This document shows positions 13,201 through 61,670 of a stretch of DNA of 64,000 bases, piece after piece. The translations under genes and the position numbers were made by a program. Each line of letters begins with the position of its first letter. Position 1 is the stretch's first letter. The notes beneath the pieces are model-generated. The model made no database searches and was not told where the DNA came from. It was given only the letters and a program-made list of their open reading frames with translations. The stretch spans positions 1,446 to 65,445 of the forward strand of contig JABACC010000007.1 in NCBI GenBank assembly GCA_014237915.1, read 5' to 3'. The stretch is from Candidatus Paceibacter sp. Lineage in GTDB: Bacteria > Patescibacteriota > Minisyncoccia > Phycocordibacterales > GCA-2747955.

Positions 13201-13348
13201 TAAACCTTTTAATATAAAAACTCTGGCACCAGAAGAAGGGTCAGAGCTTAATTTAATTAGAGCAAAAGAAATTTCTTCAGAAAAATATGGTAGAGAAAAA
13301 GCTCTCGTTGATAGAGAAATTGAAGAAAAATTTAGACAATTGATTTAA
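10241..13348 (+). CDS. Conjugation/T4SS-type P-loop ATPase (VirB4/TrbE- or VirD4/TraG-family) with a roughly 600-aa N-terminal non-ATPase region
   Basis: Walker A YVIGQTGTGKTT closely followed by CFIDPHGSD (the IDP(K/H)GE motif of the HerA/VirB4/TraG clade). Walker B FYLYIDEF, then EARKYKLSLNIAHQ and VFRVGSEDAEFL, reminiscent of TraG/TraD C-terminal motifs. No searches run. Confidence 0.55.
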   Translation: MEKEFFGEKIIKTPEQDKEFFNTNLNLNSQEKYNSSFGNLNEKKAEAVARDVLEKYPKEAISLASPEYLNKKNSAEAIVLKLSPDEDDKKMEEFLSLINKVGILNTINAIEKTESFHIKDDFHRFLVQYLKSGYQPKKLKEKEPFFISLKRTLFKIQIPNSAEEEDKNKNLKELLSSMEQFFSGMFAVSSAEEENYFSLEIALAQNSDEVDFYCAIPDGKENIFKNQLLAVFPKAKILEASDDYNIFNKKKLVAGSFAKLKKNDFFPLTTYKNLDYDPLNLIIQAFSNLKKEEGAAIQINLKTPKKPFSEKVRKAIKQVDEGKDVNEIVSKKTSFLVDLNNKIYNTFLASNKNEEKSGSSEEKNFFLEQLKEKNSSSVFEANINIVSAGETERGALQILSAIEAAFMQFENPAGNSLFFEKVDGKKLQKLIKNFTYRIFDKKNILNLNISELSSFFHFPKKTLEAGETLSSGASVSSGVDLKLKKISEEALEDFQGSSFSAPEKKVENEKVEAKNFPSENFSSQKDNNLKNISEDNFQEKENELSYSLGKVDDFEEKISKKSFEEEKKRNDNYEKFQEKKPEEKINFESEKIEKPEEEFFPQKKSTGKILLGINEHQGEETKIFMNEIDRMRHLYVIGQTGTGKTTLLKNAIIQDIENGEGVCFIDPHGSDIEDILKNIPPERAKDVVYFDPSDMKKVVGLNMLEYDKNFPEQKTFVVDEMLSIFNKLFDMKATGGPMFEQYFRNAVMLTIEDPESGSTLLDVSRVLSDSEFREMKLSKSKNLITNQFWQKIAQQAQGEASLENIVPYITSKFDNFLSNDIMRPIIAQQKSSLNFRKIMDEKKILLVNLSKGRLGELNAHLLGLIIVGKILMAALSRVDSDIKNLPPFYLYIDEFQNITTDSISQILSEARKYKLSLNIAHQYISQIDEDIKNAVFGNVGSLAVFRVGSEDAEFLEKQFLPTFSSKDIIGLKNHNAYIKLLVGGEPVKPFNIKTLAPEEGSELNLIRAKEISSEKYGREKALVDREIEEKFRQLI

Positions 13349-16289: not shown

Positions 16290-17978
16290 ATGTTGGAATT
16301 TAAAGATTCAAAATCAATGCAAAGATTTAGAAAACTCAAGGCAAATAATGCAGAAAGAATTATTTCAGTCCTTGCTAAAAAATATGGAATTTCATATGTA
16401 AATTTAACAAATGTTTCTATAAATACAGACGCTTTAAGGCTTATTTCTGAGGAAACCGCAAGGGCTACAAAAATCGCAGGCTTTGAAATTAAAGGAAGAA
16501 AAATTTATTTAGCGGTAATTTCGCCATTTCCCGAAGAGATTCAAATGGAAATTGAAAAATTAAAAGCAAAAAAATATGAGGTTGTTTTATTTATGGCTTC
16601 AGAAAAATCTTTAGAAAAAGCTTGGTCTCGTTATGGAGATATTTCTTACGCTGTAAAAACTGAAAAAGGAGTTATCGATATTTCTTCTATTGAAATCGAA
16701 GATGTTTTAAATGATTTAAAAAATATTGACTCAGCTAAAAAAATTATTGATCAAGCTCTAGCTTCAACCAAATCTTATAGAATTTCAAAAGTTATAGAGC
16801 TTATTTTATATTCTGCAGATGCTCTTGGAGCTTCAGATATCCATATTGAGCCAGAAGAAAAAAATTGCAGGTTGAGGTTTAGAGTTGATGGAATTTTAAC
16901 AAATATAACTTTTTTAGACTTACAAACTTACAACAGAATTTTATCTAGAATAAAAATTACATCAGGAATGAAATTAAATATAAAACAATCAGCTCAAGAC
17001 GGGAGATTTTCTATAAAAATGAAAGAGTCAAAATTAGAAATTAGAGTCTCCTCAGTTCCAAATCCATACGGAGAATCTATTGTTTTAAGGCTTTTAGATC
17101 CAGATTCAATTTCAGTTTCAATTGAGCATTTAGGAATGTTTTCGTATTTTAGAGAAATAATGCAAGAACAAATAAAAAGGCCAAATGGAATGATTTTAAA
17201 TACCGGCCCAACTGGATCTGGAAAATCAACAACTCTTTTTGCTTTTTTGAAAAAAATTCAAAATCCAAGTATAAAAATAATGACAATTGAAAACCCAGTC
17301 GAATATCATGTTCCGGGGATTGTTCAAACTCAAGTAAACAGAGAAAAAGGTTACGGATTTTCAGAAGGGTTAAGAGCTGCCCTAAGACAAGACCCAGATG
17401 TGGTGATGATAGGTGAGATCAGAGACAAAGAAACAGCAAACGTTTCTGCAAACGCAGCGCTTACGGGGCATTTAGTTTTATCAACTTTACATACAAACTC
17501 AGCCGCAGCTTCTTTTTCTAGAATTTTAGATTTAGGAGTAAACCCAAAAATTTTATCAACAGCTGTTAATTTAATTATTGCTCAAAGACTTGTCAGGAGG
17601 CTCTGCACGCACTGCAAAAGAGAAACATCTTTTATAGAAATTGATGGAAAAACAAGAGAAATTTTAGAAAAAGTTTATGATGGAATTGGTGATATTGAGA
17701 AAAAAACAGGCGAAAAAATTTTAAAAGAAAAAATTTTTGAACCAGCTGGCTGTGAAAAATGTAACAACACAGGTTATAGGGGTAGAGTTGGAGTTTTTGA
17801 AGCAATTTTAATGGATAATAAATTAGAAGAGATTTTAAAAACTTCCCCAACGGAAAAAGAGATTAAAGAGGGCACCAAACATCAAAATATTTTATTTTTA
17901 AAAGAAGATGCAGTTTTAAAAGTTTTAAATGGAACAACAAGCACCGAAGAGATTTTTAGAGTAATTGATTTTTATTAA
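16290..17978 (+). CDS. pilB: Type IV pilus assembly / type II secretion ATPase, GspE/PilB family
   Basis: Walker A ILNTGPTGSGKSTT. Asp box and His box (VMIGEIRD ... LVLSTLHTNSAAASFSRI). Tetracysteine motif CTHCK...CEKCNNTGYRGRVGVFE. N-terminal GSPII_E_N-like domain. Confidence 0.9.
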   Translation: MLEFKDSKSMQRFRKLKANNAERIISVLAKKYGISYVNLTNVSINTDALRLISEETARATKIAGFEIKGRKIYLAVISPFPEEIQMEIEKLKAKKYEVVLFMASEKSLEKAWSRYGDISYAVKTEKGVIDISSIEIEDVLNDLKNIDSAKKIIDQALASTKSYRISKVIELILYSADALGASDIHIEPEEKNCRLRFRVDGILTNITFLDLQTYNRILSRIKITSGMKLNIKQSAQDGRFSIKMKESKLEIRVSSVPNPYGESIVLRLLDPDSISVSIEHLGMFSYFREIMQEQIKRPNGMILNTGPTGSGKSTTLFAFLKKIQNPSIKIMTIENPVEYHVPGIVQTQVNREKGYGFSEGLRAALRQDPDVVMIGEIRDKETANVSANAALTGHLVLSTLHTNSAAASFSRILDLGVNPKILSTAVNLIIAQRLVRRLCTHCKRETSFIEIDGKTREILEKVYDGIGDIEKKTGEKILKEKIFEPAGCEKCNNTGYRGRVGVFEAILMDNKLEEILKTSPTEKEIKEGTKHQNILFLKEDAVLKVLNGTTSTEEIFRVIDFY

Positions 17979-20454: not shown

Positions 20455-21828
20455 TTGATAATGCATATTTTTTCTAATCTTAAAAAAATTTTAAAAATAT
20501 TTTTTCTTTCAGTTTTTTTTGTATTCAACTTTGTTTTTTCTGAAATTCCAGCAGAAGAAGTTTTTCAGTATTTTTTAGAAAACCCAGAAAAAATATTTGA
20601 AACTGAAGTTCAGGAAGTTTTTTATTCAGCTCAAAATTCTCGGTATGAAATTTCATCTTTAAGTAAAGACAACTCAAATATTTCTTATATTTTTTTTGCT
20701 GAAGAGCAAAGCGGAGAAATTTTTTTTCTTGATGGAGATGGAGAAAAAAAATACACAGGCTACACCGTCACAATTTTACAAGAAAATTCAGATAATGAAG
20801 ACGAAGATATTGAAGATAAAATTTTGGATAACTTAACAGATTTTGAAGGGGTTTACAACGATCAACTTGGGGGAAATAACAAAAGAAATAGTTTTGCTGA
20901 AAACGAAGATGAGGTTGAAAAAACTTTAACACCCTCAGAGCAATTAGAAGAAGCAAATAAAAGTTTGGAAGATACAGATGAAGATATTAAAGATTTAGCA
21001 ATTGAAACGTTAGAAAATTATAGTTCGCTAAAAGAATTTGTACAGTTTAAAGAAACTTTAGATGAGGACGAAGATGGACTTTCTCCTAACTCGGGTACTG
21101 ATCTTTACAGAGACATACTTGAAGATTATTTAGCAAGCGAAGACGGAAAAGAAAAAATCCAAGATCTTTTTGAAAAAAGTTCTGTAGAAGATATTGAAGA
21201 ATTTGTCGATAAGTTTTTTATAGAAAATCCAAATTTAACTAATACTGAAAAAGAAAATTGGATATTTTATCTAGAAGAGTTAAAAGAAGTTGATGAGCAA
21301 AGAGAAATAAGAAAAGCTGAAAATTTCAGCGCTCCAGAAATTAATGAAGATGGGCTAAGTAATTTTGTAGAAGCCGGCCTAAAGGCTGTTTTGAGTGATT
21401 CTCAAGAAGGACGAGGGTCAGAAGAAGGAGATGGCCAAGATCCTAACTGCTATAAATATGACGAAAAAGGGAATCCAGTAAATGATACCAGCAGGGGATA
21501 TGAAAGAGGGCTTGTGAAATATGATCCAGTATGTGATAAAAATACTAAAGGATTTGATGGTTTAATAATGACAATAAATGCGGTCACTAGTTTTGTTACA
21601 GGTATTGCTATTTTTTTATTTGTCGTTACCTTAATTTGGGCAGGAGGAATTTTAATGTTTCAAGGATCAAGTACCGGAGGAAGAGATAAAGCAAAAAAAA
21701 TGATAAACGGGGCAGTTATTGGAATATTTTTCATATTAGGAGCAACATTTATTGTAAGCTCGATTTTTTCTGTTTTCGGATTAGAAGATGAAGATTTAAT
21801 CGAAGGGAGTGTTGAAATATCTCAATAG
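20455..21828 (+). CDS. Secreted acidic protein with C-terminal VirB2/TrbC-like two-helix pilin module (long-form paralog)
   Basis: 457 aa. Signal peptide, roughly 330-aa D/E-rich region, then a C-terminal module (AVTSFVTGIAIFLFVVTLIWAGGILMFQGSSTGGRDKAKKMINGAVIGIFFILGATFIVSSIFSVFG) matching the downstream small paralogs. Confidence 0.4.
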   Translation: MIMHIFSNLKKILKIFFLSVFFVFNFVFSEIPAEEVFQYFLENPEKIFETEVQEVFYSAQNSRYEISSLSKDNSNISYIFFAEEQSGEIFFLDGDGEKKYTGYTVTILQENSDNEDEDIEDKILDNLTDFEGVYNDQLGGNNKRNSFAENEDEVEKTLTPSEQLEEANKSLEDTDEDIKDLAIETLENYSSLKEFVQFKETLDEDEDGLSPNSGTDLYRDILEDYLASEDGKEKIQDLFEKSSVEDIEEFVDKFFIENPNLTNTEKENWIFYLEELKEVDEQREIRKAENFSAPEINEDGLSNFVEAGLKAVLSDSQEGRGSEEGDGQDPNCYKYDEKGNPVNDTSRGYERGLVKYDPVCDKNTKGFDGLIMTINAVTSFVTGIAIFLFVVTLIWAGGILMFQGSSTGGRDKAKKMINGAVIGIFFILGATFIVSSIFSVFGLEDEDLIEGSVEISQ

Positions 21829-26250: not shown

Positions 26251-29200
26251 ATGGCAAATCGATCTTTTAAAATTTTTTTAACTTTAGTATTTTTTTTAAC
26301 ACCTTTTATTTCTTTTGGGGCTGATATTTATCTTCAAAAAGATAATGCTTTATGGTCTGATCCCACAGCTTGGAGTGGAGGAGTTTTACCAACAAGTTCC
26401 GATAATGTTTATTTAAAAAAAGAGGACGGAACGGAGTTTGATAAAATTACAATTGATTCTGTCGCAACCTATTTATCTATGGATGCTTCAAACATTAAAG
26501 AAATTGATGTAAAGTATAATTTATATAGATCAATAGAAGCGCCAAATTCCATTGTAAATTTTTACAATGGAAGCAACCAAATAGCATCATCTAATTTTAA
26601 AATAAAAGCCAAAGAAATATATTTTAAAGAAGGCACCGTAGAAATTATTCGCTATCCTTATTTTGAGGCAGATAAAATAGTAGTAGAGGAGAATGCTAGT
26701 ATTTATATTTCTATAACCGCGTTAGGTTATTATAATTCTATAGAAATAAAAGGAGACTTAATTCATAATGGAAAATTTTTTGGAGTAAGGGATTTTGATA
26801 TAAATCTCGATGGAAGTTTTATTAATAATGGAGAGATGGAAGATGTTCATCACTTTTATATTTCAAAAAATATTGAAAACAATTCAGTTTTACCAGATGA
26901 TTTTTATTTTCGGTATAAAACAAGCACATCAAAAAATCACCCAGTTGAAATAAAAGGTTCTGAAAAAGTTTCCTTAATTGTGACAAATGATTCAAACAAT
27001 ATTTTTTATTTTCATGATTCCGTTGATCTTAAAAATTTTTATTCTTATTATGATTCATCAGTTATAGACACAGAAAATAGTTTAAGTATTTATCTTGAAG
27101 ATGGAAAAAGTTTTAAAGCAGAAAAAGTTTATGGTCATAACGTATATTTTTTAAACAATAATAATTTTCATTTAGAATCATACGGCTCTATTACTTTTTC
27201 TCCGTATCGACTTCCAAATATTTATGCAGAAAAATCAACTGTGATTATTGAGGGAGATGGTATTTTTAAGGAAATAAAAGCAAAAGAAATATATTTTTTG
27301 GAAGGGATTCATGAGTATCCCTATAAAGGAAATACAATCACAGCGGATAATATAGTTTTAGAAGAGGGCTCATATATTCGTAATAATCAAGACCCGTACC
27401 AAAGTGGGGTAGAACCACTGACCATAAATGGAGATGTGAAAAACATGGGTTCCTTAGGAGATGATAACTTTATTATAAATGGAAACCTAGAAAATAATGG
27501 GAATGTAACAAACTTCAAGACAATTAAGGTGTATGGAGATGTATATAATAATGGTACATTTCAAGAAAACTCAAGAGGCGATTCTCCAACAATTTTTGCA
27601 TATGGAGATTTCTATAATTTTGGAACATACACATCACGAAACTTTTATTCCTATGGAAATATAGATTCAAGTGATATATTAGAAACAAGTATTAATCTAT
27701 ATGAAAACGTTGATGGAATCCATAAAAAGCTATCTTTTTCTGGAGATTATTTAAATTCAAATCTTATTATTAGGGAAAATATAACCTTAGATAAATCAGT
27801 AAGAGAAATTCCTTTTGATATTGAAGATGCAGAAATTATTGTAAATTCTAACTTCCTAGAGGTTCCAACTTTAAAGAATTCTAAACTTGAAGGAGATTTT
27901 GTTTTAGAAGTAAGAAATATTATAGACACTGAAGCTTTAAACGTAAAAGTTAGTGTAAGTAACGATATCGGAGGAAATATTTCGGTGAAAAATATAGTGC
28001 TCACTTCAGGAGATTTAGAAAATGGAGTAAACAGAGTAAGTGATGACGTGGTAAGGTTTGAAACGCTCGAGATAGAAGAGAATGTCTCTCTAGAGGTTTA
28101 CAAAAGGGCACCAAAACTTTATGGAAAAATTCTAAACAAGGGAACAATTTATGGCCTCGACAACTATCAAGAATTGTTATTCATTTTTGAGGATTTCAAC
28201 AATCAAGGAATAATTGAAAATGAAATATCTGTGTATTTTTATTTTAACAAAGAAATTAACCAAACCAATCAATATTTCATAAAAGAAGGAACTTCTTTTT
28301 CAGAACCATCAGTTGATGAAATAAAAACAGGATATTCAGCTAGGGTTGAGGACTATCTAAACCAAACAGACAAAGAATTTTCAATTTGGTATAAACTTCC
28401 AGAAGAATCCGAATGGAAAGTAAATTATTTTAATGTTGATTTTGAAATTCCAGAAATTGTTGTTCCTCCTCCAGAACCTGAAACTTTAGAATTTTCTTTT
28501 TCTAACATCGAAGATCATTTAAAAAACGAAGAAGTAGAAATTACACTAAGCGCTGCAAGGAATTTGCAAGATAGGGATTCTAAAGTAAGAAGAAAAGAAA
28601 TGTATTTTTATCTTTCTACAAACAAAGGAGATATTGTTTATCCTTCTGTTGTAACTTTTGCAGAAGATGGAGATTATTATGAAAAAGAAAAAACTTTTTC
28701 TATGAAAATAGATGAAGCAGAAAGTGATATTGAAATATATATTAAAGATAGTGAGGGAAATCTTTTAGGAACTTCAAAACCTTTTTCTGTAGTAGAGTCG
28801 GGAAAAGCTTATTTTAAATTTAGAGAGGATCATTATCATAGGTATGATTTGGACATAAAATTAGGAACAAAAGACTACTCTTTTGAATCCACAAAATCTA
28901 TAAATTTAATGGTTTTACCTTGCGATGAAAATCTCTCTGTTATACCAAAAGGTAATATTTTTATTCCAAGCGACACAGGCCTTATACATCAAGAATTTTT
29001 TTATCTACCAATACAAGTTAACATATCTTGCGACACAACAGATACGATAGAAATAGCAAAATCTATTCCCTACGAAAATTGGGTTTGTGAAGACTCAGAC
29101 AAAACCCCAGTTTTACTTTTACCGGGGATTATGGGCTCTGATACAAAATTTAACCTTTCTGTTTACCCTCAAATACCAAAAGATTCCCCTGCTTGGGATT

Positions 29201-30201
29201 CTGAAAAACTTGTTTTACATGATCCAGGACCAGCTAATTTTTCAGTAGGTTGGGAAAATCTTAAAGATGAGCTTAGGAGCGAAGGTTACAGAGGAGGTTG
29301 CAATATTATAGATGTTCCCTACGATTGGAGGTTAGAAATTCCAGAAATTAGAGATTTATACCTAATCCCTTGGATCGAAGAAGCAAAAAGACTAACAGGT
29401 AAAGATGAAGTTGATATTGTAGCTCATTCAATGGGCGGGCTTGTGGCCAGATCTTTTATTCAATCTTCAAAACATTTAAACGAAGTGAGAAATTTTGTAA
29501 TGGTAGGAACTCCAAACTCTGGCTCAGCCTCAACTTATCCTATCTGGGAAGGAGGGGATCCAATTTTAGTAGATAAAAATACTCAAGATTTATCAACTAT
29601 TGGAGGATATGTATCAAAGTATTTTTACACCAACACTATAAATAAAAATTATAAAAAAGTTATCGAAGATAAAGATTTATGCATTTGGGAATCAGGATTT
29701 TTACCTGCTCCAATTTATTGCAACAAAGAAAAAGTTTATGATTTTTTACATACATACTCTCCTTCTGTTGGAAACTTAATGCCAACATACCCCGGAGCTT
29801 TAAAAGATCATCTTAGCGAAGCAGATTTAAATATATCAGCTGAGCCAAATAATTTTCTTCTTGCTTTAAATAGTGGAGGAGATTACGGCAGAGATACATA
29901 TATTCACCCAGACGATATTAATAATAAAATATCAGGAGAGAGTATTCTTTTTTATGGAGATAATTTTGATACAATAGAAAATATAAAGGTAGATCAAAGC
30001 TTTTCTCATCAATTTTTGTATCAAGATGGAAAACCTTCTGGCCTAGATTTTATAATTAAAAATCAAGGAGACAAGACAGTTCCTAAAGTCTCAATACCGA
30101 TAGGTAATATTAATTTATCTTCTGATGTTTCAGATCAGGAACACGGGCGACTTATAAATGATTTAAAAGAAGAAATTGTTGAGTTTATTAATAATAATTA
30201 A
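26251..30201 (+). CDS. Giant secreted surface protein with C-terminal LCAT-like alpha/beta-hydrolase (phospholipase/acyltransferase) domain
   Basis: 1316 aa. N-terminal signal peptide (FLTPFISFGADIY). Roughly 900 aa of Asn/Gly/Tyr-rich repetitive beta-type sequence. C-terminal domain with PYDWR (the LCAT/PDAT-family YDWR motif), nucleophile elbow VAHSMGGLVAR (GxSxG), and downstream Asp/His candidates. Confidence 0.6.
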   Translation: MANRSFKIFLTLVFFLTPFISFGADIYLQKDNALWSDPTAWSGGVLPTSSDNVYLKKEDGTEFDKITIDSVATYLSMDASNIKEIDVKYNLYRSIEAPNSIVNFYNGSNQIASSNFKIKAKEIYFKEGTVEIIRYPYFEADKIVVEENASIYISITALGYYNSIEIKGDLIHNGKFFGVRDFDINLDGSFINNGEMEDVHHFYISKNIENNSVLPDDFYFRYKTSTSKNHPVEIKGSEKVSLIVTNDSNNIFYFHDSVDLKNFYSYYDSSVIDTENSLSIYLEDGKSFKAEKVYGHNVYFLNNNNFHLESYGSITFSPYRLPNIYAEKSTVIIEGDGIFKEIKAKEIYFLEGIHEYPYKGNTITADNIVLEEGSYIRNNQDPYQSGVEPLTINGDVKNMGSLGDDNFIINGNLENNGNVTNFKTIKVYGDVYNNGTFQENSRGDSPTIFAYGDFYNFGTYTSRNFYSYGNIDSSDILETSINLYENVDGIHKKLSFSGDYLNSNLIIRENITLDKSVREIPFDIEDAEIIVNSNFLEVPTLKNSKLEGDFVLEVRNIIDTEALNVKVSVSNDIGGNISVKNIVLTSGDLENGVNRVSDDVVRFETLEIEENVSLEVYKRAPKLYGKILNKGTIYGLDNYQELLFIFEDFNNQGIIENEISVYFYFNKEINQTNQYFIKEGTSFSEPSVDEIKTGYSARVEDYLNQTDKEFSIWYKLPEESEWKVNYFNVDFEIPEIVVPPPEPETLEFSFSNIEDHLKNEEVEITLSAARNLQDRDSKVRRKEMYFYLSTNKGDIVYPSVVTFAEDGDYYEKEKTFSMKIDEAESDIEIYIKDSEGNLLGTSKPFSVVESGKAYFKFREDHYHRYDLDIKLGTKDYSFESTKSINLMVLPCDENLSVIPKGNIFIPSDTGLIHQEFFYLPIQVNISCDTTDTIEIAKSIPYENWVCEDSDKTPVLLLPGIMGSDTKFNLSVYPQIPKDSPAWDSEKLVLHDPGPANFSVGWENLKDELRSEGYRGGCNIIDVPYDWRLEIPEIRDLYLIPWIEEAKRLTGKDEVDIVAHSMGGLVARSFIQSSKHLNEVRNFVMVGTPNSGSASTYPIWEGGDPILVDKNTQDLSTIGGYVSKYFYTNTINKNYKKVIEDKDLCIWESGFLPAPIYCNKEKVYDFLHTYSPSVGNLMPTYPGALKDHLSEADLNISAEPNNFLLALNSGGDYGRDTYIHPDDINNKISGESILFYGDNFDTIENIKVDQSFSHQFLYQDGKPSGLDFIIKNQGDKTVPKVSIPIGNINLSSDVSDQEHGRLINDLKEEIVEFINNN

Positions 30202-32236: not shown

Positions 32237-32770
32237 ATGAAAAAAGAAAAAATATTAGAAGAGCTTGCTTTAAAAATTATAAAAAAAGAAATAAGTAAAG
32301 ATGAAGTTGATATAGTGGCTCATTCAATGGGCGGGCTTGTGGCCAGATCTTTTATTCAATCTTCAAAACATTTAAACGAAGTGAGAAATTTTGTAATGGT
32401 AGGAACTCCAAACTCTGGCTCAGCCTCAACTTATCCTATCTGGGAAGGAGGGGATCCTATGGAAGTAGATATTTTACTAGGCGGAACTTTCGCTATCATT
32501 TTTTTTAACGAAGGAGATATATCGATGCTCAAATGGAATATTTTATATTTTTTGTTTACCATCTTTTGTGTTTTTCTATCTGTTAAAATGAAGAGTACTT
32601 CCATTTTATCTATTAATACATTATTTTTACTTTTATATATTTCTTATAATGTTAATGAATATTTTTCAAACTCCGTCAGCTTTCCTTTTTTGATCATCGT
32701 TTTAGGTTTTATTTTTTTACTTTTCGGATATCTTGCATTTCATTTTAATAAAAAATATATTAAAAACTAG
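32237..32770 (+). CDS. Orphan fragment: duplicated lipase active-site segment fused to a hydrophobic C-terminal region (possible pseudogene or recombination cassette)
   Basis: nt 32300-32460 are near-identical (one or two mismatches over about 160 nt) to nt 29401-29560 of the giant CDS. These encode EVDIVAHSMGGLVARSFIQSSKHLNEVRNFVMVGTPNSGSASTYPIWEGGDP. Flanks are unrelated; the C-terminal 100 aa are TM-rich. Confidence 0.35.
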   Translation: MKKEKILEELALKIIKKEISKDEVDIVAHSMGGLVARSFIQSSKHLNEVRNFVMVGTPNSGSASTYPIWEGGDPMEVDILLGGTFAIIFFNEGDISMLKWNILYFLFTIFCVFLSVKMKSTSILSINTLFLLLYISYNVNEYFSNSVSFPFLIIVLGFIFLLFGYLAFHFNKKYIKN

Positions 32771-53812: not shown

Positions 53813-53842
53813 ATATGGCTTTGTTTTTGCTATAATTTCAAA

Positions 53843-55360
53843 ATGTTAAAAAAGTTTCTAATTTTTTTAGATAATACAACAATGTATCGATTAACTTTAG
53901 TCTGTCTTTTTTTAATTTCCATATTTTCTCTATTTTTTTCTTTTTTTGGTTTAATTTATTATCCAATATTTAATTTATTTTTCTCTCTCGGAGTTATTTT
54001 GCTTTCTTGTGTTTTTTTTCATTATCTTTTTTCTTTTTTAAAAAAAGCTCCTTCAAACATTGAATCAACTTTAATTTCAGCTTTTTTAATTTTTTTAATT
54101 TTTGACCCGTTTTTTAACTCAGAAGGTTTGTTTTCTTTAGTTTTAATTTCATTTTTAACAATCGCCTCAAAATATTTAATCGTTTATAGAAAAAATCATT
54201 TTATAAATCCTGTTATTTTTGGAGCAGTTTTAATTTCTCTCTTGGGTTTAAATTATGCAACTTGGTGGGTGGCAAACCCATATCTTTTTTTACCAGTTTT
54301 AATTTTAGGTTTTTTATTAATTTACAAAATTAGAAAAATTGAAATGGCAGTAACATTTATTTTAAGTTCATTTATTTTTTCTTTTTTAGTTTTATTTTTT
54401 GAAAATTCTTTAGATTTTTCTTTTTTTTATACTTTTTTCTTAGCTTGGCCTATTTTATTTTTTTCTTTTTTCATGCTTACAGAACCTATAGGAATTCCCT
54501 CGGAAAGAAAAAATCAGATTTTTTATGCAATTTTAGTGGGAGCCCTCTCTTCTGTATCTTTTTCTTTTTTATTTTTTAATTCTTCTTTTGAAATGTCACT
54601 TTTTTTAGCCAATCTTTTGTTTTTTTTCTTTTTTCAAAAATCAGGAAAATTTATTTTGAAGTTAAAAGAAATTAAAAAAGTTTCTGAAAATAGTTTTTTA
54701 TATATTTTTTCTCGTCCAAAAAATTTAAACTTCAAAGCAGGACAATATTTAGAAGCGGTTTTGCCACACAAAGAGCAAGATTCTCGGGGAGTTTCTAGAT
54801 ATTTTAGTTTAGCCTCATCTCCCACAGAAAAAGATTTGGCTTTTTTAATAAAAATGGAAAATAAAAAAAGCTCTTTTAAAGAAAAATTAAAAAATATGAA
54901 AAAAGAAGATATTCTTTTTGCTAAAAATATTTCTGGAGATTTTATTTTGAAAAAAAATGAAAAAAAGGAAATAGTTTTTGTTGCAGGAGGTGTTGGGATA
55001 ACTCCTTTTTTTTCGATGATTAAATATATTATTGATAAAAAACAGGAAAGTCAGATTAAACTTTTTTTATGTGCTCAAAACCATAATTCTATTACAAACA
55101 TTTCTCTTTTGAAAAAATGGCAAAAAGAAAACAAAAATTTAAAAATAATTTATGTTCTAGATGAAAAAACCGATTTATTAAATTGCAAAAAAGGAAGGTT
55201 AAACAAGAAAATTTTAGATGAAGAAAATGTTTCTTTTAAAGATTCTATTTTTTATATTTCAGGCCCTACGGCCATGGTTAAATCGGTAGAAAGTCTACTT
55301 AGAAATTCACAAACGCCAAAAGAAAATATTAAAACAGATTATTTTCCAGGATTTTCTTAA
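53843..55360 (+). CDS. Membrane-embedded FAD/NAD(P)-binding oxidoreductase (ferredoxin-NADP-reductase-type C-terminal domain fused to a roughly 300-aa polytopic N-terminal domain)
   Basis: C-terminal FAD_binding_6/NAD_binding_1 motifs: FKAGQYLEAVLP…RYFSLASSP (RxYS), VFVAGGVGITPFFSMI (GGxGxxP), …YISGP. The N-terminal roughly 8 TM segments are His-poor, so not a ferric-reductase heme domain. Confidence 0.55.
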   Translation: MLKKFLIFLDNTTMYRLTLVCLFLISIFSLFFSFFGLIYYPIFNLFFSLGVILLSCVFFHYLFSFLKKAPSNIESTLISAFLIFLIFDPFFNSEGLFSLVLISFLTIASKYLIVYRKNHFINPVIFGAVLISLLGLNYATWWVANPYLFLPVLILGFLLIYKIRKIEMAVTFILSSFIFSFLVLFFENSLDFSFFYTFFLAWPILFFSFFMLTEPIGIPSERKNQIFYAILVGALSSVSFSFLFFNSSFEMSLFLANLLFFFFFQKSGKFILKLKEIKKVSENSFLYIFSRPKNLNFKAGQYLEAVLPHKEQDSRGVSRYFSLASSPTEKDLAFLIKMENKKSSFKEKLKNMKKEDILFAKNISGDFILKKNEKKEIVFVAGGVGITPFFSMIKYIIDKKQESQIKLFLCAQNHNSITNISLLKKWQKENKNLKIIYVLDEKTDLLNCKKGRLNKKILDEENVSFKDSIFYISGPTAMVKSVESLLRNSQTPKENIKTDYFPGFS

Positions 55361-55380
55361 TTTAATGTTATAATTTTTTT

Positions 55381-55803
55381 ATGAAATATTTTTTAATTAT
55401 TTTGATTATAATTTTTTTAGGAGCTTTTTCTATTTTTTACTGGAGAGGAAACGAAGAAGAAAGTCTTAGTGAAAATTTTCAAGATCAAGAGATTTTAGAT
55501 TATAAAAATGGAAATTACCAAGCATCTTCCTCCTACAGAGTTCCAAACGGAAATTCTCATAATATTGATGTAGATTTAGAAATTAAAGAAGACAAAATTA
55601 TTGAAATGAAACTTTCTTTTGACGGCCAAGAAGGCGCAGGAGCTTCCACTTTAAGCAACCAAAGATTTTCTTCAGAAATAGATTTTTATGTTTTAGATAA
55701 AGATATTGACGAGCTTTCACTTTCAAGAATTGGCGGGGCTTCTTTAACAACAAATTCTTTTAACGAGGCTTTAAAAGTTATAAAAAATACAGCCTCTAAC
55801 TAA
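55381..55803 (+). CDS. Membrane-anchored FMN-binding domain protein (ApbE substrate candidate)
   Basis: 140 aa. N-terminal TM. A C-terminal segment …DIDELSLSRIGGASLTTNSFNEAL… resembles the FMN_bind flavinylation motif (D-x-x-SGAT-x-T/S). Confidence 0.5.
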   Translation: MKYFLIILIIIFLGAFSIFYWRGNEEESLSENFQDQEILDYKNGNYQASSSYRVPNGNSHNIDVDLEIKEDKIIEMKLSFDGQEGAGASTLSNQRFSSEIDFYVLDKDIDELSLSRIGGASLTTNSFNEALKVIKNTASN

Positions 55804-55816
55804 TTTGTAATAATTT

Positions 55817-56629
55817 ATGATAAAAATTGGGCCAATTGAAAAACTTGGAACAATTTGGTTTTTTGAGTTTTTTGATTTAGAAAAAAAAGATTTAGATAAA
55901 ATTGAAAATAAAATTTTTCAAATTATGGATAATTTTGAAAATGATTATTCTCGTTTTTTAGAAAATTCAAAATTAAACATTTTAAATAAAAATAAAATTT
56001 TTGAAAATCCAGATAAAGAATTTTTAGAACTTTTGAGCCTTGCAGAAAAATCTTTTTTCCAAACAAATGGAGCTTTTAATATTTTAGTCGGAGATTTTTT
56101 AGAAAAATCAGGTTATGATAAAAAATATTCTTTTAAAGCCCAAAAAAAATTGCCAAAAATTCCAGATTTTCAAGAAGCTATTTTTTTCGATAAAAATAAA
56201 ATTATTTTAAAAGGGGATTTCAAAATTGATTTTGGAGGTTTTGGGAAAGGTTATTTAATCGACAAGTTAGCATTTTTTTTAAAAGAAAATAAAATAAAAC
56301 ATTTTTTAATAAATGGCGGAGGAGATATTTATGCTACAGAAAATAAAAAAAAAAAAGGTTTTGAGATTTTTTTAAAAAATCCTCAAGATGAGAAAAAAAT
56401 TTTTGCAAAAATTATTTTAAAAAATGAAGCTCTTTGCGTTTCATCTTCTTTTTATAGAAAATGGCAGTCTGAAAATAAAGAATTTTCGCATCTTGTAGGA
56501 TCTGAAAACCCAGAAAATTCTTTTGTTATTTCAAAAAAAGCAGTTGATGCAGATATTTGGGCAACAGCACTTTCCATAAATTCTAAAATCAAAAACCCAA
56601 AAAATATAAATTTTTTAAAAAATTTTTAA
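55817..56629 (+). CDS. apbE: FAD:protein FMN transferase (ApbE/Ftp family)
   Basis: …IDFGGFGKGYLIDKLA… and …INGGGDIYA… ApbE signatures. 270 aa. Confidence 0.75.
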   Translation: MIKIGPIEKLGTIWFFEFFDLEKKDLDKIENKIFQIMDNFENDYSRFLENSKLNILNKNKIFENPDKEFLELLSLAEKSFFQTNGAFNILVGDFLEKSGYDKKYSFKAQKKLPKIPDFQEAIFFDKNKIILKGDFKIDFGGFGKGYLIDKLAFFLKENKIKHFLINGGGDIYATENKKKKGFEIFLKNPQDEKKIFAKIILKNEALCVSSSFYRKWQSENKEFSHLVGSENPENSFVISKKAVDADIWATALSINSKIKNPKNINFLKNF

Positions 56630-56684
56630 AAACAAAACGGCGGATATTGAAGCTTTTTACAAAACTTTCAACATCCGCCAACAA

Positions 56685-57053
56685 CTAAGCAGCGAGAGAA
56701 TCTTCTTGCAAAAAAGTAATTATTAATATTATACTTTTTCCCCCATCTTTATTTTTTCTGCCCTTTGCTCGCACAGCACACATAGTTCCTTCTTCAGGAC
56801 AGCCCTTTTTTCTCGGGGCACATATTTTTATTTTAAGAAGTTTTTCAGACCCTTTAATGTTTTTGAGAACAGCTGGAAGACCTTCCATGTCTTGACGGAG
56901 AGTTGTTGACTTCTTTTTTTCCTCAAGTGCTTTTTTCAATAAATTGTATATTTTCTCCAGAACATGCGTCTGAAGGACGGTGGTTTGTTTGATATTCAAA
57001 ACAATTCTCCTGATTGAAAATTTGCCACTATCAGCAAACTTATAATATTTTAT
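56685..57053 (-). CDS. Hypothetical Cys-containing small protein; start uncertain
   Basis: The ATG-based ORF (to 57344) overlaps tRNA-Gln and is therefore over-extended. An in-frame TTG at 57053 or the internal Met (MEGLPAVLK…) are more plausible starts. C-terminal CAPRKKGCPEEGTMC. Confidence 0.2.
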   Translation of the reverse strand: MKYYKFADSGKFSIRRIVLNIKQTTVLQTHVLEKIYNLLKKALEEKKKSTTLRQDMEGLPAVLKNIKGSEKLLKIKICAPRKKGCPEEGTMCAVRAKGRKNKDGGKSIILIITFLQEDSLAA

Positions 57054-57134
57054 ATTAACAATTTTTTTTGTCAAACATTTTTTAATTAAAAAATTTAAAA
57101 AACCAAGAAAAATCTTGGTTTTTAATTTTCTAGT

Positions 57135-57203
57135 TGCCAGACAGGGACTCGAACCCCGATTAACCGGACCAGAACCGATTGTCCTACCGTTAGACGATCT
57201 GGC
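57135..57203 (-). tRNA. tRNA-Gln (anticodon CUG), compact D-loop
   Basis: Reverse complement GCCAGATCGTCTAACGGTAGGACAATCGGTTCTGGTCCGGTTAATCGGGGTTCGAGTCCCTGTCTGGCA. Anticodon loop TTCTGGT, T-loop GGTTCGAGTCC, 7-bp acceptor stem with one G·U pair. Confidence 0.6.
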
Positions 57204-57360
57204 AAAAATTATGAAAGCTGAAAGCTTGATAAAATTTTTAATGCCAGTCGTCGGGCGATTTCTGGCAAAAACGCTGGTTAAAAATTTCACTGCGGTTTTT
57301 TGTGGAAAAATTTTCCACAAAAAACCGCAATGAAATTTTAGCAAAAATAAATATTTAAAA

Positions 57361-57413
57361 AAGGCGAAAAGAAATTTAAAAAATATTTTTTAAATTTTTT
57401 TTCGCCTTTTTTA
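57361..57413. terminator. Long AT-loop palindrome (bidirectional terminator candidate) at the 3' side of rnpB
   Basis: aaggcgaaaagaaatttaaaaaatattttttaaattttttttcgcctttttt. Confidence 0.4.
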
Positions 57414-57416
57414 AAA

Positions 57417-57707
57417 CCTTTTACAATAAGCCGAGTTCTGTCTCAAAAATGAGTGATGATATTTATCTACTTTTTTTGTTGCCAAAAAAATTTAGCGACT
57501 CTCCCCAAACGGGGCGCGGTCTTGCATACAGGCAAGGATTTAGCCGTTTCATTTTTTAGTTTCCTAAAAATTTATCCCGAAGGATAGTTTTTGATTACTC
57601 AAAAAACCGTCACTGCTCGCACCTCTTTAAGATGGCCGTTAGCCACTACCAAATTATATGCTCGGACTTTCCTCTTTGTAAAAACAAAGCATCAGCATAG
57701 TAAAAGG
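57417..57707 (-). ncRNA. rnpB: RNase P RNA (bacterial type, reduced, roughly 290 nt)
   Basis: On the minus strand: P4 5' strand GAGGAAAGTCCGAGC (canonical GGAAAGUCCGGGCUCC). P4 3' strand ACAGAACTCGGCTTA (canonical ACAGAACCCGGCUUA). P1 pairing CCTTTTAC (57417-57424) with GTAAAAGG (57700-57707). GC-rich island with no ORF. Confidence 0.7.
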
Positions 57708-57741
57708 TTTATTTATTTTAACAAAAAAAATATAAATAGCA

Positions 57742-60461: not shown

Positions 60462-61670
60462 ATGCTTTTTAAATATAAGGTTTTAGATAGAAATTCTGGT
60501 ACAGAAAAAAATGGAGTTATCGAAGCGCATTCAAAAGATGTTGCAATTTCATCTCTTCAAGATAGAGGTTTTTATGTTATTTCTGTTGTTGATGGAGATA
60601 AAAAATCTTTTTTAGAGCAAAATGTTTTTTTAGGGAAGGTAAAAAACAAAGATATTGTTATTTTATCTAAACAACTAGCTACACTTTTTGACGCTCAAGT
60701 TTCAGCTTTAAAAATTTTCGAATTAATTTCAGTTGAGACAAAAAATGAAAATTTAAAAAATGCTCTTGTTGAAATTGCAGCCGACATTGCTGATGGATCT
60801 TCTGTAAATAAAGCTTTAGCCAAGCAGTCGCATATTTTTTCATCTTTTTATATAAATATGGTTGCAGCAGGAGAAGAGTCGGGTAAGTTATCAGAAACTT
60901 TTATTTATCTTTCAGATTATTTAGATAGATCTTACGAAATTTCTTCAAAAGCAAAAACGGCTTTTATTTACCCTGCTTTTGTTATTTCTGTTTTCATCAT
61001 CGTTATTTATTTAATGCTTACTATGGTTATTCCAAATATTGCTGGAATTTTAATTGATTCTGGACAGGATCTTCCACTTCCAACAGTTATTATTTTAGCT
61101 CTTTCTTCTTTTATGACTGATTACGGAATTTATTTAATTATTATTTTAATTATTGGAGCAATATCTTTATTTAGATACTCAAAAAGTGCTGCTGGAAAAT
61201 ATATTTTTGATGAGTTTAAAATAAAAATTCCATACATAGGGAGTTTGTATAAAAATCTTTATTATTCAAGAATTTCTGGAAATCTAAATTTAATGCTTTC
61301 TTCAGGGGTTGCGATGGTTAAATCTCTTGAAAATACAGCAAAAATTGTTGATAATAAAATTTATGAAGATATGTTGATGGAAATAGCGGAAGATGTTAGA
61401 GGAGGAGCTTCTGTTTCAAATTCTTTTATGAAAGGCGAAAAATATATTCCGTCACTTTTAATACAAATGATTAAAGTTGGAGAGGAAACTGGAAAATTAT
61501 CTGACATTTTAAAAACAATGAGTAAATTTTATGAAAGAGAGGTTTTAAACTCTGTAAATAGTTTGGTCAGTTTGATAGAACCAGCTTTAATTGTAGCTTT
61601 GGGAGTTGGAGTTGGAGGAATGCTTTCAGCTGTTTTAATCCCGATTTACAGCATCACAGGAACTGTTTAA
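60462..61670 (+). CDS. pilC: Type IV pilus assembly / T2SS platform protein, GspF/PilC family
   Basis: Two T2SSF repeats (…MVAAGEESGKLSETF… and …MIKVGEETGKLSDIL…), each followed by TM helices. 402 aa. Confidence 0.85.
   Translation: MLFKYKVLDRNSGTEKNGVIEAHSKDVAISSLQDRGFYVISVVDGDKKSFLEQNVFLGKVKNKDIVILSKQLATLFDAQVSALKIFELISVETKNENLKNALVEIAADIADGSSVNKALAKQSHIFSSFYINMVAAGEESGKLSETFIYLSDYLDRSYEISSKAKTAFIYPAFVISVFIIVIYLMLTMVIPNIAGILIDSGQDLPLPTVIILALSSFMTDYGIYLIIILIIGAISLFRYSKSAAGKYIFDEFKIKIPYIGSLYKNLYYSRISGNLNLMLSSGVAMVKSLENTAKIVDNKIYEDMLMEIAEDVRGGASVSNSFMKGEKYIPSLLIQMIKVGEETGKLSDILKTMSKFYEREVLNSVNSLVSLIEPALIVALGVGVGGMLSAVLIPIYSITGTV

Follow-up and report, generated by a model that had tools for sequence, protein, structure and literature searches.

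NQR/RNF-like systems were defined as a class by Méheust et al. (2021, eLife, PMC8238504) and modelled by Huang et al. (2024, mSystems, PMC11334425), with a published range that is mainly Actinobacteria and CPR and extends to Chloroflexi. The literature covered here reports no experiments on any member. Méheust et al. (2021) looked for an ApbE and/or FMN-binding-domain gene in the same cluster and for an NqrF-like PF00175 domain, located C-terminally in the same polypeptide. Both are found in the 64-kb stretch of DNA analysed here (the window), the PF00175 domain matching at 7.2e-17 over residues 379-483 of a 505-aa fusion protein. As in the described systems, an NqrB/RnfD-like domain is fused to PF00175, an NqrC/RnfG-like anchored subunit and an adjoining ApbE accompany it, and the Thr that is flavinylated in NqrB/RnfD is missing. 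The trio belongs to this already defined and modelled class, of which it is an ordinary member except for an ApbE without an export signal, and it is predicted to carry electrons from NAD(P)H on the inside to a flavin-bearing protein on the outside. The original prediction had placed a three-gene module at 53843-56629 and likened it to minimal NQR/RNF-type modules; all three ORFs and their assignments hold and, since the trio equals a published system (PMC8238504, PMC11334425), that reading is supported and the class is known.

The three ORFs are intact and run in the same direction (Table 1), separated by 20 nt between fusion and partner and by 13 nt between partner and ApbE; the ApbE start lies 457 nt beyond the fusion stop, with the partner gene in between. 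The neighbours of the module are MraY, MurJ, tRNA-Gln, FtsW and MurG. A Pfam scan of the 52 window proteins detected no NqrA/D/E or RnfA/B/C/E, and no electron-acceptor gene was found within the 64-kb window. The TG.TATAAT-type pattern seen before the fusion and partner genes is spread across the window (26 of 51 genes versus 3-5 expected), and a promoter scan gave no excess over shuffled sequence (36 versus 33.4).

Table 1. Coordinates of the genes, domains and candidate elements of the module in the window.
Feature	Position	Strand	Basis or remark
Possible leaderless-mRNA promoter, TGcTATAAT	53828..53836	+	6 nt 5' of fusion ATG; conjectural
Fusion protein, NqrB/RnfD-like membrane domain plus FNR-type FAD/NAD(P)H domains, 505 aa	53843..55360	+	ORF; Pfam, NCBIfam
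Membrane domain, residues 1-262, ~10 TM helices	53843..54628	+	PF03116 family matches; helices from AF2 model
H119-F-I-N122-P123 motif	54197..54211	+	counterpart of NqrB N200..N203-P204 by HMMER alignment
Short predicted outer loop, residues 133-145, LLGLNYATWWVAN	54239..54277	+	in place of the NqrB/RnfD flavinylated-Thr loop
M211-L-T213-E214-P215 motif	54473..54487	+	counterpart of NqrB M343-A-T345-D346-P347 by HMMER alignment
FNR-type FAD/NAD(P)H module, residues 270-505	54650..55357	+	RYFSLAS, AGGVGITPF, YISGP, C-terminal DYFPGFS
Possible internal promoter, TGtTATAAT	55366..55374	+	6 nt 5' of partner ATG; conjectural
Partner, membrane anchor plus divergent FMN_bind domain, NqrC/RnfG counterpart, 140 aa	55381..55803	+	family-level FMN_bind evidence
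Hydrophobic anchor, residues 3-21, YFLIILIIIFLGAFSIFYW	55387..55443	+	19-residue N-terminal segment
Predicted flavinylation motif, S115-R-I-G-G-A-S121-L-T-T-N125	55723..55755	+	aligned to SGAT sites
ApbE-type FAD:protein FMN transferase, 270 aa, without signal peptide	55817..56629	+	Pfam ApbE 3.4e-35
Weak terminator-like hairpin	56802..56819	+	~170 nt past ApbE stop; consensus scan; not evidence of function

A fusion protein related to NqrB and RnfD

The proposed fusion of a polytopic membrane domain to an FAD/NAD(P) module is borne out at both ends of the protein, whose AF2 model is confident over the folded domains (pLDDT 86.8, pTM 0.76). PF03116 (NQR2_RnfD_RnfE) matches the window copy at E 1.9e-5 to 4.5e-5 (23.4-24.6 bits), slightly short of its cutoff of 27.7 bits, and matches 22 of 23 N-domains of the fusion family, with a best value of 3.8e-14. 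Searched against the PDB, the family profile of the membrane domain matches only RnfD (8ahx_D, 1.3e-5) and NqrB (9lrr_B/7xk3_B, 3-4e-5), which rules out the unrelated transporter that had been envisaged as a way for the prediction to fail. In the C-terminal part, NAD_binding_1 (7.2e-17), FAD_binding_6 (1.2e-3) and, weakly, NAD_binding_6 (2.8e-5) are detected by Pfam, and flavin reductase and flavohemoprotein reductase domains by NCBIfam (~1e-28). The best Foldseek matches of this module are flavohemoglobin, the NqrF FAD domain and the SpNOX dehydrogenase domain (E 1e-13 to 1e-16).

The two membrane-domain motifs in Table 1 are essentially fixed, H119, N122 and P123 as well as M211, T213, E214 and P215 being unchanged in 23/23 fusion-family members. 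Their counterparts include the NqrB riboflavin ligands N200..N203-P204 (PMC10643135, Extended Data Fig. 6) and D346, which binds riboflavin and whose mutation impairs function (PMC10643135). In these alignments, the positions of the NqrB riboflavin ligands are thus conserved and near-invariant in the family. The NqrB segment 215-273 (59 aa), which contains Thr236, faces only 11 profile positions in the fusion family, the covalent-FMN loop being deleted, and the [ST] preceding WW is variable, with I, F or R in some members. This deletion agrees with the published loss of the flavinylated Thr in NQR/RNF-like systems (PMC11334425 Fig. 4F-G). Judged from the K/R-rich inner loops, the N and C termini of the membrane domain are probably both cytoplasmic. 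Two counterparts of the NqrB ion path are retained, E157 corresponding to E74 (21/23) and the gate F338 to an invariant F206.

The FMN_bind-like partner and its leaderless ApbE

The small middle protein had been described as FMN_bind-like, a description that fails on the single sequence but stands at profile level. The 140-aa partner alone gave no FMN_bind match at E<=1 in Pfam (PF04205) or NCBIfam, the very outcome that had been named as refuting the prediction, but stronger tests overturn this result: PF04205 matches its relatives in 5/9 and 8/40 cases and is the only Pfam family that recurs among them. The partner-family profile matches the solved FMN-binding domain 8p2a (1.5e-5), which the canonical SGAT partners of the NQR/RNF-like system match at 5.9e-22, and hhalign of the two families returned 98.7% probability (E 2.6e-16). 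The AF2 model of the partner, with domain pLDDT above 90, has a beta-sheet-plus-helix fold whose best PDB match in Foldseek, 3o6u (prob 1.00), is modest (E 1.3e-3, TM ~0.5). IscU/SufU matches ranking below it were put down to fold noise, and a weak PLCC match (0.025), not seen again in relatives, was discarded. At profile level, gene 2 thus encodes a divergent FMN_bind domain.

The peptide SRIGGASLTTNS was confirmed at partner residues 115-126. Its GGAS121 lies in register with the SGAT of the canonical partners and of PDB 8p2a, and R116, G119, A120, S121, L122 and T123 are unchanged in 40 partner sequences. Ser121 (codon 55741-55743), within SRIGGASLTT, is accordingly our predicted FMN attachment site, supplying the flavinylation residue that the original prediction had left to be identified. 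The window motif has neither the canonical Asp nor the first [ST], and its acceptor is Ser. The ApbEs examined to date use Ser less well than Thr, and Asp-to-Ala in a tested substrate had only minor effects (PMC12052999).

The third gene was correctly identified as ApbE. Its Pfam match (PF02424) spans profile positions 2-249 of 266, and the protein aligns full-length to 7esa, 4xgw and 1vrm. It retains DFGGFGKGY, NGGGD, SSxYR and DADIWATA, corresponding to GGxxKGY, GGD, SxxYR and DxDxxxTA, the motifs of the FAD/Mg2+ site. The accompanying assumption that it works on the extracytoplasmic side fared less well: lacking a leader sequence, the window ApbE is not an extracytoplasmic lipoprotein. Its fold begins at ~residue 10 and an upstream in-frame start is impossible, 150/150 of the nearest ApbE cluster representatives likewise begin at the fold, and 63 of 72 locus ApbEs have <=13 residues before it. 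The cognate ApbEs of the window and of almost every relative examined thus have no leader, though the partner is membrane-anchored or exported as a lipoprotein. This does not fit flavinylation at the outer face, and the mismatch is not discussed in the literature covered here.

Leaderless ApbEs would be expected if the system faced inward, with the FMN domain of the partner and the ApbE both in the cytoplasm. The module would then export no electrons and would be an NAD(P)H oxidoreductase of the cytoplasmic side, which might drive Na+/H+ movement through the NqrB-like domain. The only characterised leaderless bacterial ApbE acts on a cytoplasmic substrate (PMC12052999), and the conserved E74 and F206 would suit ion coupling. 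We nevertheless consider this arrangement unlikely. Net charge flanking the partner anchor is higher on the N side than on the C side in 67 of 93 family members, equal in 19 and reversed in 7, suggesting an N-in/C-out orientation, and the linker that follows is T/S/P/A-rich. Actinobacterial partner homologs bear lipoprotein (lipobox) signals and are therefore exported. In addition, the positive-inside rule, applied to the fusion, places the deleted NqrB/RnfD FMN loop, where the flavin of the partner would fit, on the outer face, and the AlphaFold-multimer model in PMC11334425 puts the partner outside.

With an outward-facing partner as the preferred reading, a leaderless ApbE beside an exported substrate poses a concrete and testable problem for the model of extracytosolic flavinylation. 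Tat export, which would allow an ApbE in the cytoplasm to serve a partner destined for export, was rejected as a general answer, twin-arginine motifs occurring in only 1-2 actinobacterial and in 0 CPR or alphaproteobacterial partners among those scored. Tentatively, and with more doubt than conviction, we suggest that in NQR/RNF-like systems generally the leaderless ApbE may flavinylate the still-unfolded partner in the cytoplasm, at its short C-terminal motif, the flavinylated pre-protein then being exported by Sec. Were this true, FAD export would no longer be needed, and the position of the partner gene, always directly before apbE, would be explained. We know of no described route in which a covalent cofactor is loaded before Sec translocation.

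Gene linkage, acceptor residue and distribution

Linkage was counted in 65 related loci with adequate flanks, within a neighbourhood of 2.5 kb from the fusion. ApbE is present in 58 of these loci and an FMN_bind-type partner is detected by HMM in 51; in 10 further loci inspected by eye, a DxxSGAT ORF lies directly 5' of ApbE in all. The association of the three genes is far beyond chance. The partner is upstream of ApbE in 48/48 loci with both ApbE and an HMM-detected partner within 2.5 kb, while the position of the fusion varies, the order being partner-ApbE-fusion in 44 of the 48 and the window order, fusion-partner-ApbE, in only 2. The ApbE clade covaries with the acceptor residue of the partner. 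Clade A is associated with Ser in 16/16 scorable loci, with VSGSSLTP in ~10 more, and clade B with Thr in 37 loci and Ser in 6. The window module belongs to a subtype, defined by a Ser acceptor and a distinct ApbE clade, whose partner is mostly missed by Pfam FMN_bind.

These observations bear on a further alternative, that the ApbE homolog is not the transferase of the partner and has instead a cytoplasmic flavin-trafficking, FAD-hydrolysing or other target-directed role. It is suggested by the conflicting topologies of the leaderless ApbE and the exported partner and by a motif without the canonical Asp, but it stands against the fixed partner-ApbE order, the covariation of clade and acceptor, the intact transferase motifs, the invariant G-[AS]-S/T of the partner and the minor effect of Asp-to-Ala in a tested substrate (PMC12052999); we regard it as quite improbable. 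Its corollary, a partner that binds flavin non-covalently or receives it from another exported ApbE encoded elsewhere, is equally improbable. The adjoining ApbE remains our preferred transferase.

Clustering the neighbours of ~80 loci yielded no universal accessory or acceptor gene. In other genomes, some nearby genes suggest a possible tie to metal uptake or methionine-sulfoxide repair; none of these genes is present in the window. A link to cell-wall synthesis, raised by the site between MurJ and FtsW, was rejected, as the closest relative lacks MurJ adjacency and other neighbourhoods differ.

The module had been thought notable for a reduced genome, a view that does not survive its distribution. 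More than 1015 full-length relatives of the fusion and >1000 protein clusters exist, many of the clusters named as CPR, and the two-protein architecture with intact motifs occurs in at least 415 species genomes of five phyla. To be counted in the published census, a cluster needed a predicted signal peptide either in ApbE or in a recognised flavinylated domain (PMC8238504 section 23), so that clusters of the window subtype are probably missing from it; the partner itself might fall outside the published signal-peptide rule, since PF04205 does not recognise it. The published count is 127 clusters, and the escape of the dominant CPR-type partner from PF04205, together with the leaderless ApbE, both of which concern the census criteria, suggests that the system is much commoner in CPR than this.

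The present analysis adds to the description of the class the retention of riboflavin ligands with deletion of the FMN loop, the subtype defined by Ser and ApbE clade, and the leaderless cognate ApbEs. As far as we know, membrane redox systems are very scarce in CPR/Patescibacteria and a respiratory chain is lacking, so that a widespread path from NAD(P)H to the outside is of relevance to their NAD(P)+ regeneration, metal uptake or surface repair.

Proposed electron path and comparison with known systems

The top Foldseek match of the full fusion model is the Streptococcus pneumoniae NADPH oxidase (8qta, 8qt6), which, with the weak NAD_binding_6 match, would suit a heme-based NOX/ferric-reductase-type enzyme composed of a transmembrane cytochrome and an FAD/NAD domain. 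However, it is the dehydrogenase domain that produces these structural matches (TM-score ~0.39 across the full query), and PF03116 is detected rather than any ferric-reductase-domain Pfam family. Ferric-reductase domains ligate heme through two His pairs, whereas the membrane-domain alignment contains a single invariant His (H119) and no bis-His set, making such an enzyme highly improbable. Just as improbable is that the trio is what is left of a complete RNF or NQR operon in decay, as the homologs of just 3/6 subunits might suggest, given the same architecture and intact motifs across the >1000 clusters, at least 415 species genomes and five phyla, the absence of RnfA/B/C/E and NqrA/D/E from the window, three intact ORFs and two structure models that are confident over their folded domains.

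We therefore return to the NQR/RNF-like reading, and consider it probable that the trio is a complete flavinylation system of this class, a pared-down relative of the NADH-to-outer-flavin half of RNF/NQR. We infer the following path, including the cofactors bound, the direction of flow, the side of the membrane on which the partner lies and the acceptor. Electrons would pass from NAD(P)H to the FAD of the cytoplasmic FNR-type domain, then to a non-covalent flavin in the riboflavin-type pocket of the NqrB/RnfD-like domain (S79, H119, N122, E214), then to FMN held covalently on Ser121 of the anchored partner and finally to an extracytoplasmic acceptor. The partner would dock on the outer face, where NqrB/RnfD would have its own covalent FMN loop, and the adjoining ApbE would load FMN onto Ser121 with FAD as donor. 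The published model of the class agrees (PMC8238504 section 13, PMC11334425 section 9), and in it the partner docks on the membrane domain so that its flavinylation site comes close to the pocket for the non-covalent flavin (Huang et al. 2024, PMC11334425). Less likely than the cytoplasmic flavinylation suggested above is its extension that the NqrB-like domain might still move Na+ or H+, which would make a two-protein redox-driven ion pump in these fermentative bacteria.

Compared with the NQR/RNF-like system as described, the window differs in a partner under the Pfam FMN_bind threshold, an Asp-less motif with a Ser acceptor, an ApbE of a separate clade and a rare gene order. It shares with Na+-NQR (NqrB/NqrC/NqrF of Vibrio cholerae; PMC10643135) a homologous membrane domain with its riboflavin pocket kept, an anchored FMN_bind subunit, flavinylated by ApbE in NQR and predicted to be so in the window, and an FNR-type NADH-oxidising module. 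In contrast to Na+-NQR, it has no NqrA, NqrD, NqrE or Fe-S centres, the covalent-FMN loop of NqrB is deleted, the FNR module is fused straight to the NqrB-like domain, and the proposed flow is one-way outward whereas that of NQR is semicircular, to quinone. The closest functional analogue is the NADH-side half of RNF (RnfC to RnfD to RnfG), RnfD being the best PDB sequence match of the membrane domain; here, an FNR domain takes the place of RnfC, and RnfA, RnfB, RnfE and the ferredoxin site are absent.

In Listeria flavin-based EET, FmnB is an exported lipoprotein and a quinone intermediate is used, whereas the path proposed here includes no quinone, an exporter gene is absent and the ApbE is leaderless. 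Listeria EET (Ndh2, EetA/B, PplA, FmnB) resembles our proposal in having a flavinylated extracytoplasmic FMN_bind protein fed with electrons from cytosolic NADH, and the ApbE-like FmnB flavinylates extracytosolically with flavin supplied by an ECF transporter (PMC9973259). The cytoplasmic ApbE of Klebsiella pneumoniae (PMC12052999) is, like that of the window, without a signal peptide, but acts on a fumarate reductase that is soluble and cytoplasmic, whereas the predicted substrate in the window has an export anchor and its relatives a lipoprotein signal.

The trio and its surroundings

The window, with a G+C content of ~27%, has the gene content usual for a small CPR/Patescibacteria genome, with genes for housekeeping, the cell envelope and pili. 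The trio is co-directional, with intergenic gaps of 20 nt (genes 1 and 2) and 13 nt (genes 2 and 3), and is flanked by MraY-MurJ upstream and by tRNA-Gln (minus strand), FtsW and MurG downstream. The ORFs are read at exactly the coordinates originally predicted for a three-gene flavin module, and the peptide quoted with that prediction, SRIGGASLTTNS, is likewise right.

Features of the trio and of the gap that follows it (window positions)
Feature	Position	Strand	Description
Gene 1, fusion	53843-55360	+	ORF, 505 aa
Gene 2, small partner	55381-55803	+	ORF, 140 aa
Gene 3, ApbE	55817-56629	+	ORF, 270 aa
Post-ApbE gap	56630-57741		1.1 kb, non-coding
Bidirectional hairpin	57098-57123	both	post-ApbE gap
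tRNA-Gln(CTG)	57133-57204	-	inside post-ApbE gap
Long hairpin	57287-57333	-	reported 20-pair stem, post-ApbE gap
Long hairpin	57362-57407	+	reported 20-pair stem, post-ApbE gap

A TATAAT-like hexamer, often as TGnTATAAT, is found at 26 of the 51 plus-strand window genes, ~3-5 being expected, and ends 4-9 nt (mostly 6) 5' of the start codon (examples at 53828-53836, 55366-55374, 51169, 50674 and 58939). A Shine-Dalgarno-like sequence is observed at 1 of the 51 genes, compared with ~4.5 at random positions. The hexamers abutting start codons and the scarcity of Shine-Dalgarno-like sequences suggest that most window genes give rise to leaderless mRNAs, each from its own promoter.

Elsewhere in the window, a 1316-aa protein (26251-30201) has an LCAT/PGAP1-type lipase domain near residues 1000-1150, the remainder lacking a Pfam match, and a separate 177-aa ORF (32237-32770) matches the same domain families as this lipase domain. 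Secretion and pilus genes are scattered (10241-13348, 16290-17978, 20455-21828 and 60462-61670), encoding a 1035-aa protein with weak AAA_22 and TraG-D_C matches, a PilB/T2SSE ATPase, a T4SS-pilin-domain protein and a T2SSF platform protein. At E<=1e-5, Pfam offers no match to the 858-aa ORF at 5611-8187.

The fusion protein

The C-terminal half of the fusion matches Pfam NAD_binding_1 (7.2e-17) and FAD_binding_6 (1.2e-3), and NCBIfam flavin-reductase-type models at ~1e-28; it is assigned by homology as an FNR-type FAD/NAD(P)H module. The AF2 model of the fusion is confident (pLDDT 86.8, pTM 0.76) and in Foldseek retrieves flavohemoglobin reductase domains, NqrF FAD domains and a bacterial NOX dehydrogenase domain. 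Residues 1-262 form ~ten helices in this model and score 23-25 bits against PF03116 (NQR2_RnfD_RnfE), just under the threshold of 27.7. PF03116 is matched by 22 of the 23 aligned family N-domains (best 3.8e-14), and the N-domain family profile, compared with the whole PDB, finds only RnfD (8ahx_D, 1.3e-5) and NqrB (9lrr_B and 7xk3_B, 3-4e-5), which identifies the membrane domain, on sequence grounds, as an NqrB/RnfD homolog and excludes an unrelated transporter. A heme-type ferric-reductase domain is excluded by the single invariant His. The predicted fusion of a polytopic membrane domain to a ferredoxin-NADP-reductase-type module is thus borne out by Pfam, NCBIfam, PF03116 and Foldseek.

NqrB carries a covalent FMN near the periplasmic face and, nearer the cytoplasm, a riboflavin (Hau et al. 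2023, PMC10643135, Extended Data Fig. 6) whose ligands are T162, N200, N203, A205, the F342 backbone and D346 (PMC10643135). When the family N-domain profile is aligned to NqrB, the counterparts in the window fusion are, in the same order, S79, H119, N122, V124, F210 and E214. H119, N122, T213, E214 and P215 are invariant in all 23 family N-domains, and at position 79 they have T (19) or S (4). New here is that a predicted inner, non-covalent flavin pocket is kept in the membrane domain. NqrB residues 215-273, the loop that carries the flavinylated Thr236, lie opposite just 11 family positions in the fusion (window LLGLNYATWWVAN), and the Ser/Thr preceding WW in this short loop is not conserved across the family. 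As aligned, the loop deletion arrives independently at what Huang et al. 2024 (PMC11334425) state, that the NqrB/RnfD-like subunit is without the flavinylation Thr. Because counterparts of the NqrB ion path are conserved (E157 as E74, F338 as F206), the fusion might also couple to ion movement.

The small partner and the adjacent ApbE

Pfam and NCBIfam gave no FMN_bind match to the window partner at E<=1; thus the direct match sought by the original prediction was not obtained, but homology was recovered through family profiles, the missing match being a sensitivity problem rather than evidence against homology. A near-invariant C-terminal motif, SR[IV]xG[AS]SLT[TS]NAF, is common to the partner relatives identified by sequence and synteny, and FMN_bind is their sole recurring Pfam family (5/9, best 3.2e-7; 8/40). 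The partner family profile reaches 8p2a, an FMN-binding domain of solved structure, at 1.5e-5, GGAS standing in register with SGAT. Canonical DxxSGAT partners, those adjoining the same fusion in other genomes, match 8p2a at 5.9e-22, and profile-profile comparison aligns window-type with canonical partners over the whole domain (98.7% probability, E 2.6e-16). AF2 models the domain confidently (pLDDT above 90) as three strands plus two helices, with Ser121 opening the last helix; the best PDB match, 3o6u, is also found by sequence profiles. We conclude that in the partner an N-terminal anchor carries an FMN_bind domain of divergent sequence. Ser121, from the GGAS-SGAT alignment, is the predicted FMN acceptor, supplying the residue that remained to be named. 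The motif departs from canonical D-x-x-[ST]-G-A-[ST] at the Asp and the first [ST]; Asp-to-Ala exchange has minor effects only, and ApbE can use Ser, though less well (PMC12052999). A group of ~270-330-aa proteins (P0131-P0158) also scores highly with the small-partner profile (E 1e-37 to 1e-48), many of them with PF04205; at about double the length of the partner, these may represent two-domain or tandem versions.

Assignment of gene 3 as ApbE is upheld by Pfam (3.4e-35) and by lengthwise alignment to solved FAD:protein FMN transferases, with GGxxKGY, GGD, SxxYR and DxDxxxTA kept. Two subtypes are distinguished: clade A, including the window, in which ApbE (~270-310 aa) starts FEAIGTxW, and clade B, in which it (~247 aa) starts MGMPITVE. 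The partner acceptor is Ser in 16/16 scorable clade A loci, ~10 further loci having VSGSSLTP, and in clade B Thr in 37 and Ser in 6. This covariation argues that the adjacent ApbE would be the partner's own transferase.

The window ApbE fold begins at ~residue 10, its N-terminus (MIKIGPIEKLGT...) is hydrophilic and no alternative start exists upstream, leaving no room for a signal peptide. The nearest ApbE cluster representatives all align from their first 1-14 residues (150/150), and in 63 of the 72 cognate ApbEs the fold is preceded by <=13 residues, the remaining 9 being longest-ORF extensions, most overlapping the upstream partner gene. The partner, conversely, looks exported, as net-charge bias favours N-in/C-out in 67/93 and opposes it in 7, the linker is T/S/P/A-rich and six actinobacterial partners have lipobox signals. 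By a positive-inside reading of the fusion, the FMN loop that is deleted falls on its outer side. In the ApbE review (PMC12052999), a leaderless bacterial ApbE is known only for a cytoplasmic fumarate reductase, and the mismatch is undiscussed in both class papers (PMC8238504, PMC11334425). The simplest reconciliation would be flavinylation of the partner precursor before export, which is plausible since a seven-residue motif suffices for ApbE (PMC12052999). Alternatively, the partner could face inward, contrary to its exported look, or the window ApbE could have a role different from that argued for by the covariation. Tat export was dropped as a general answer, twin-arginine motifs being rare among partners.

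Occurrence and relation to the NQR/RNF-like class

More than 1015 full-length fusion relatives are found at E<=1e-5, many of them bearing CPR lineage names, and at least 415 species-level genomes encode the fusion, those among the matches listed including CPR, Chloroflexota, Actinomycetota, Alphaproteobacteria and Spirochaetota. The best 80 loci, the window and contigs of three relatives were surveyed, a best-scoring rather than random sample with ORFs called by the longest-ORF rule. Among the 65 loci flanked on each side by >=2.5 kb, ApbE lies <=2.5 kb from the fusion in 58 and the partner is detected by HMM in 51; all 10 inspected loci with ApbE and no HMM-detected partner have a DxxSGAT ORF directly upstream of ApbE. 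The order partner-ApbE-fusion occurs in 44 loci and a divergent arrangement in 2, whereas fusion-partner-ApbE is confined, among surveyed loci, to the window and its closest relative. In every one of the 48 loci where ApbE and an HMM-detected partner both lie within 2.5 kb, the partner is the upstream gene of the two.

Recurrent neighbours are a histidine kinase (18 loci), ABC ATPase (17), OmpR-type response regulator (15), HlyD-type adaptor (8), P-type ATPase (6), MsrA and MsrB (4 each), NRAMP (3) and VIT1 (3). The kinase and response regulator adjoin the module in CPR and Alphaproteobacteria alike; loci with these two, or with NRAMP, VIT1 or a P-type ATPase, include L013, L016, L023, L026, L035, L039, L041, L042, L055 and L056. 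In a CPR relative (L002; 1183-2577, 9563-10479), flavokinase, riboflavin synthase (Lum_binding) and lumazine synthase lie directly upstream of the module, itself ~3 kb upstream of MsrA and MsrB. For VIT1 neighbours, Méheust et al. suggested a link to metal reduction/uptake (PMC8238504). Across loci, these families are consistent with a regulated role in reducing and taking up metals or in oxidative repair, but do not identify the acceptor of the window module; the window encodes no acceptor gene and no histidine kinase, OmpR-type response regulator, NRAMP, VIT1 or P-type ATPase.

Méheust et al. 2021 defined the NQR/RNF-like class as an NqrB/RnfD-like membrane domain fused to a PF00175 domain within a flavinylation gene cluster, and reported 127 clusters, mainly in Actinobacteria and CPR (PMC8238504); Huang et al. 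2024 modelled the two-subunit complex of Ktedonobacter racemifer (PMC11334425). No experimental characterisation of the class was found in the papers examined. To be counted in the census, a cluster needed a signal peptide predicted either in its ApbE or in a recognised flavinylated domain (PMC8238504, section 23). Because of the signal-peptide requirement, and because subtype-A partners are mostly without a precomputed Pfam match, subtype-A clusters were probably missed, which would be one contribution to flavinylation being reported as under-represented in CPR. The window trio fits the published definition feature by feature, supporting the NQR/RNF-type redox reading of the original prediction, and is thus a further member of a known, computationally defined kind of module, to which are added here the recognition of the partner as a cryptic FMN_bind domain, the mapping of flavin ligands, the covariation of the two subtypes and the paradox, seen generally, of the leaderless ApbE.
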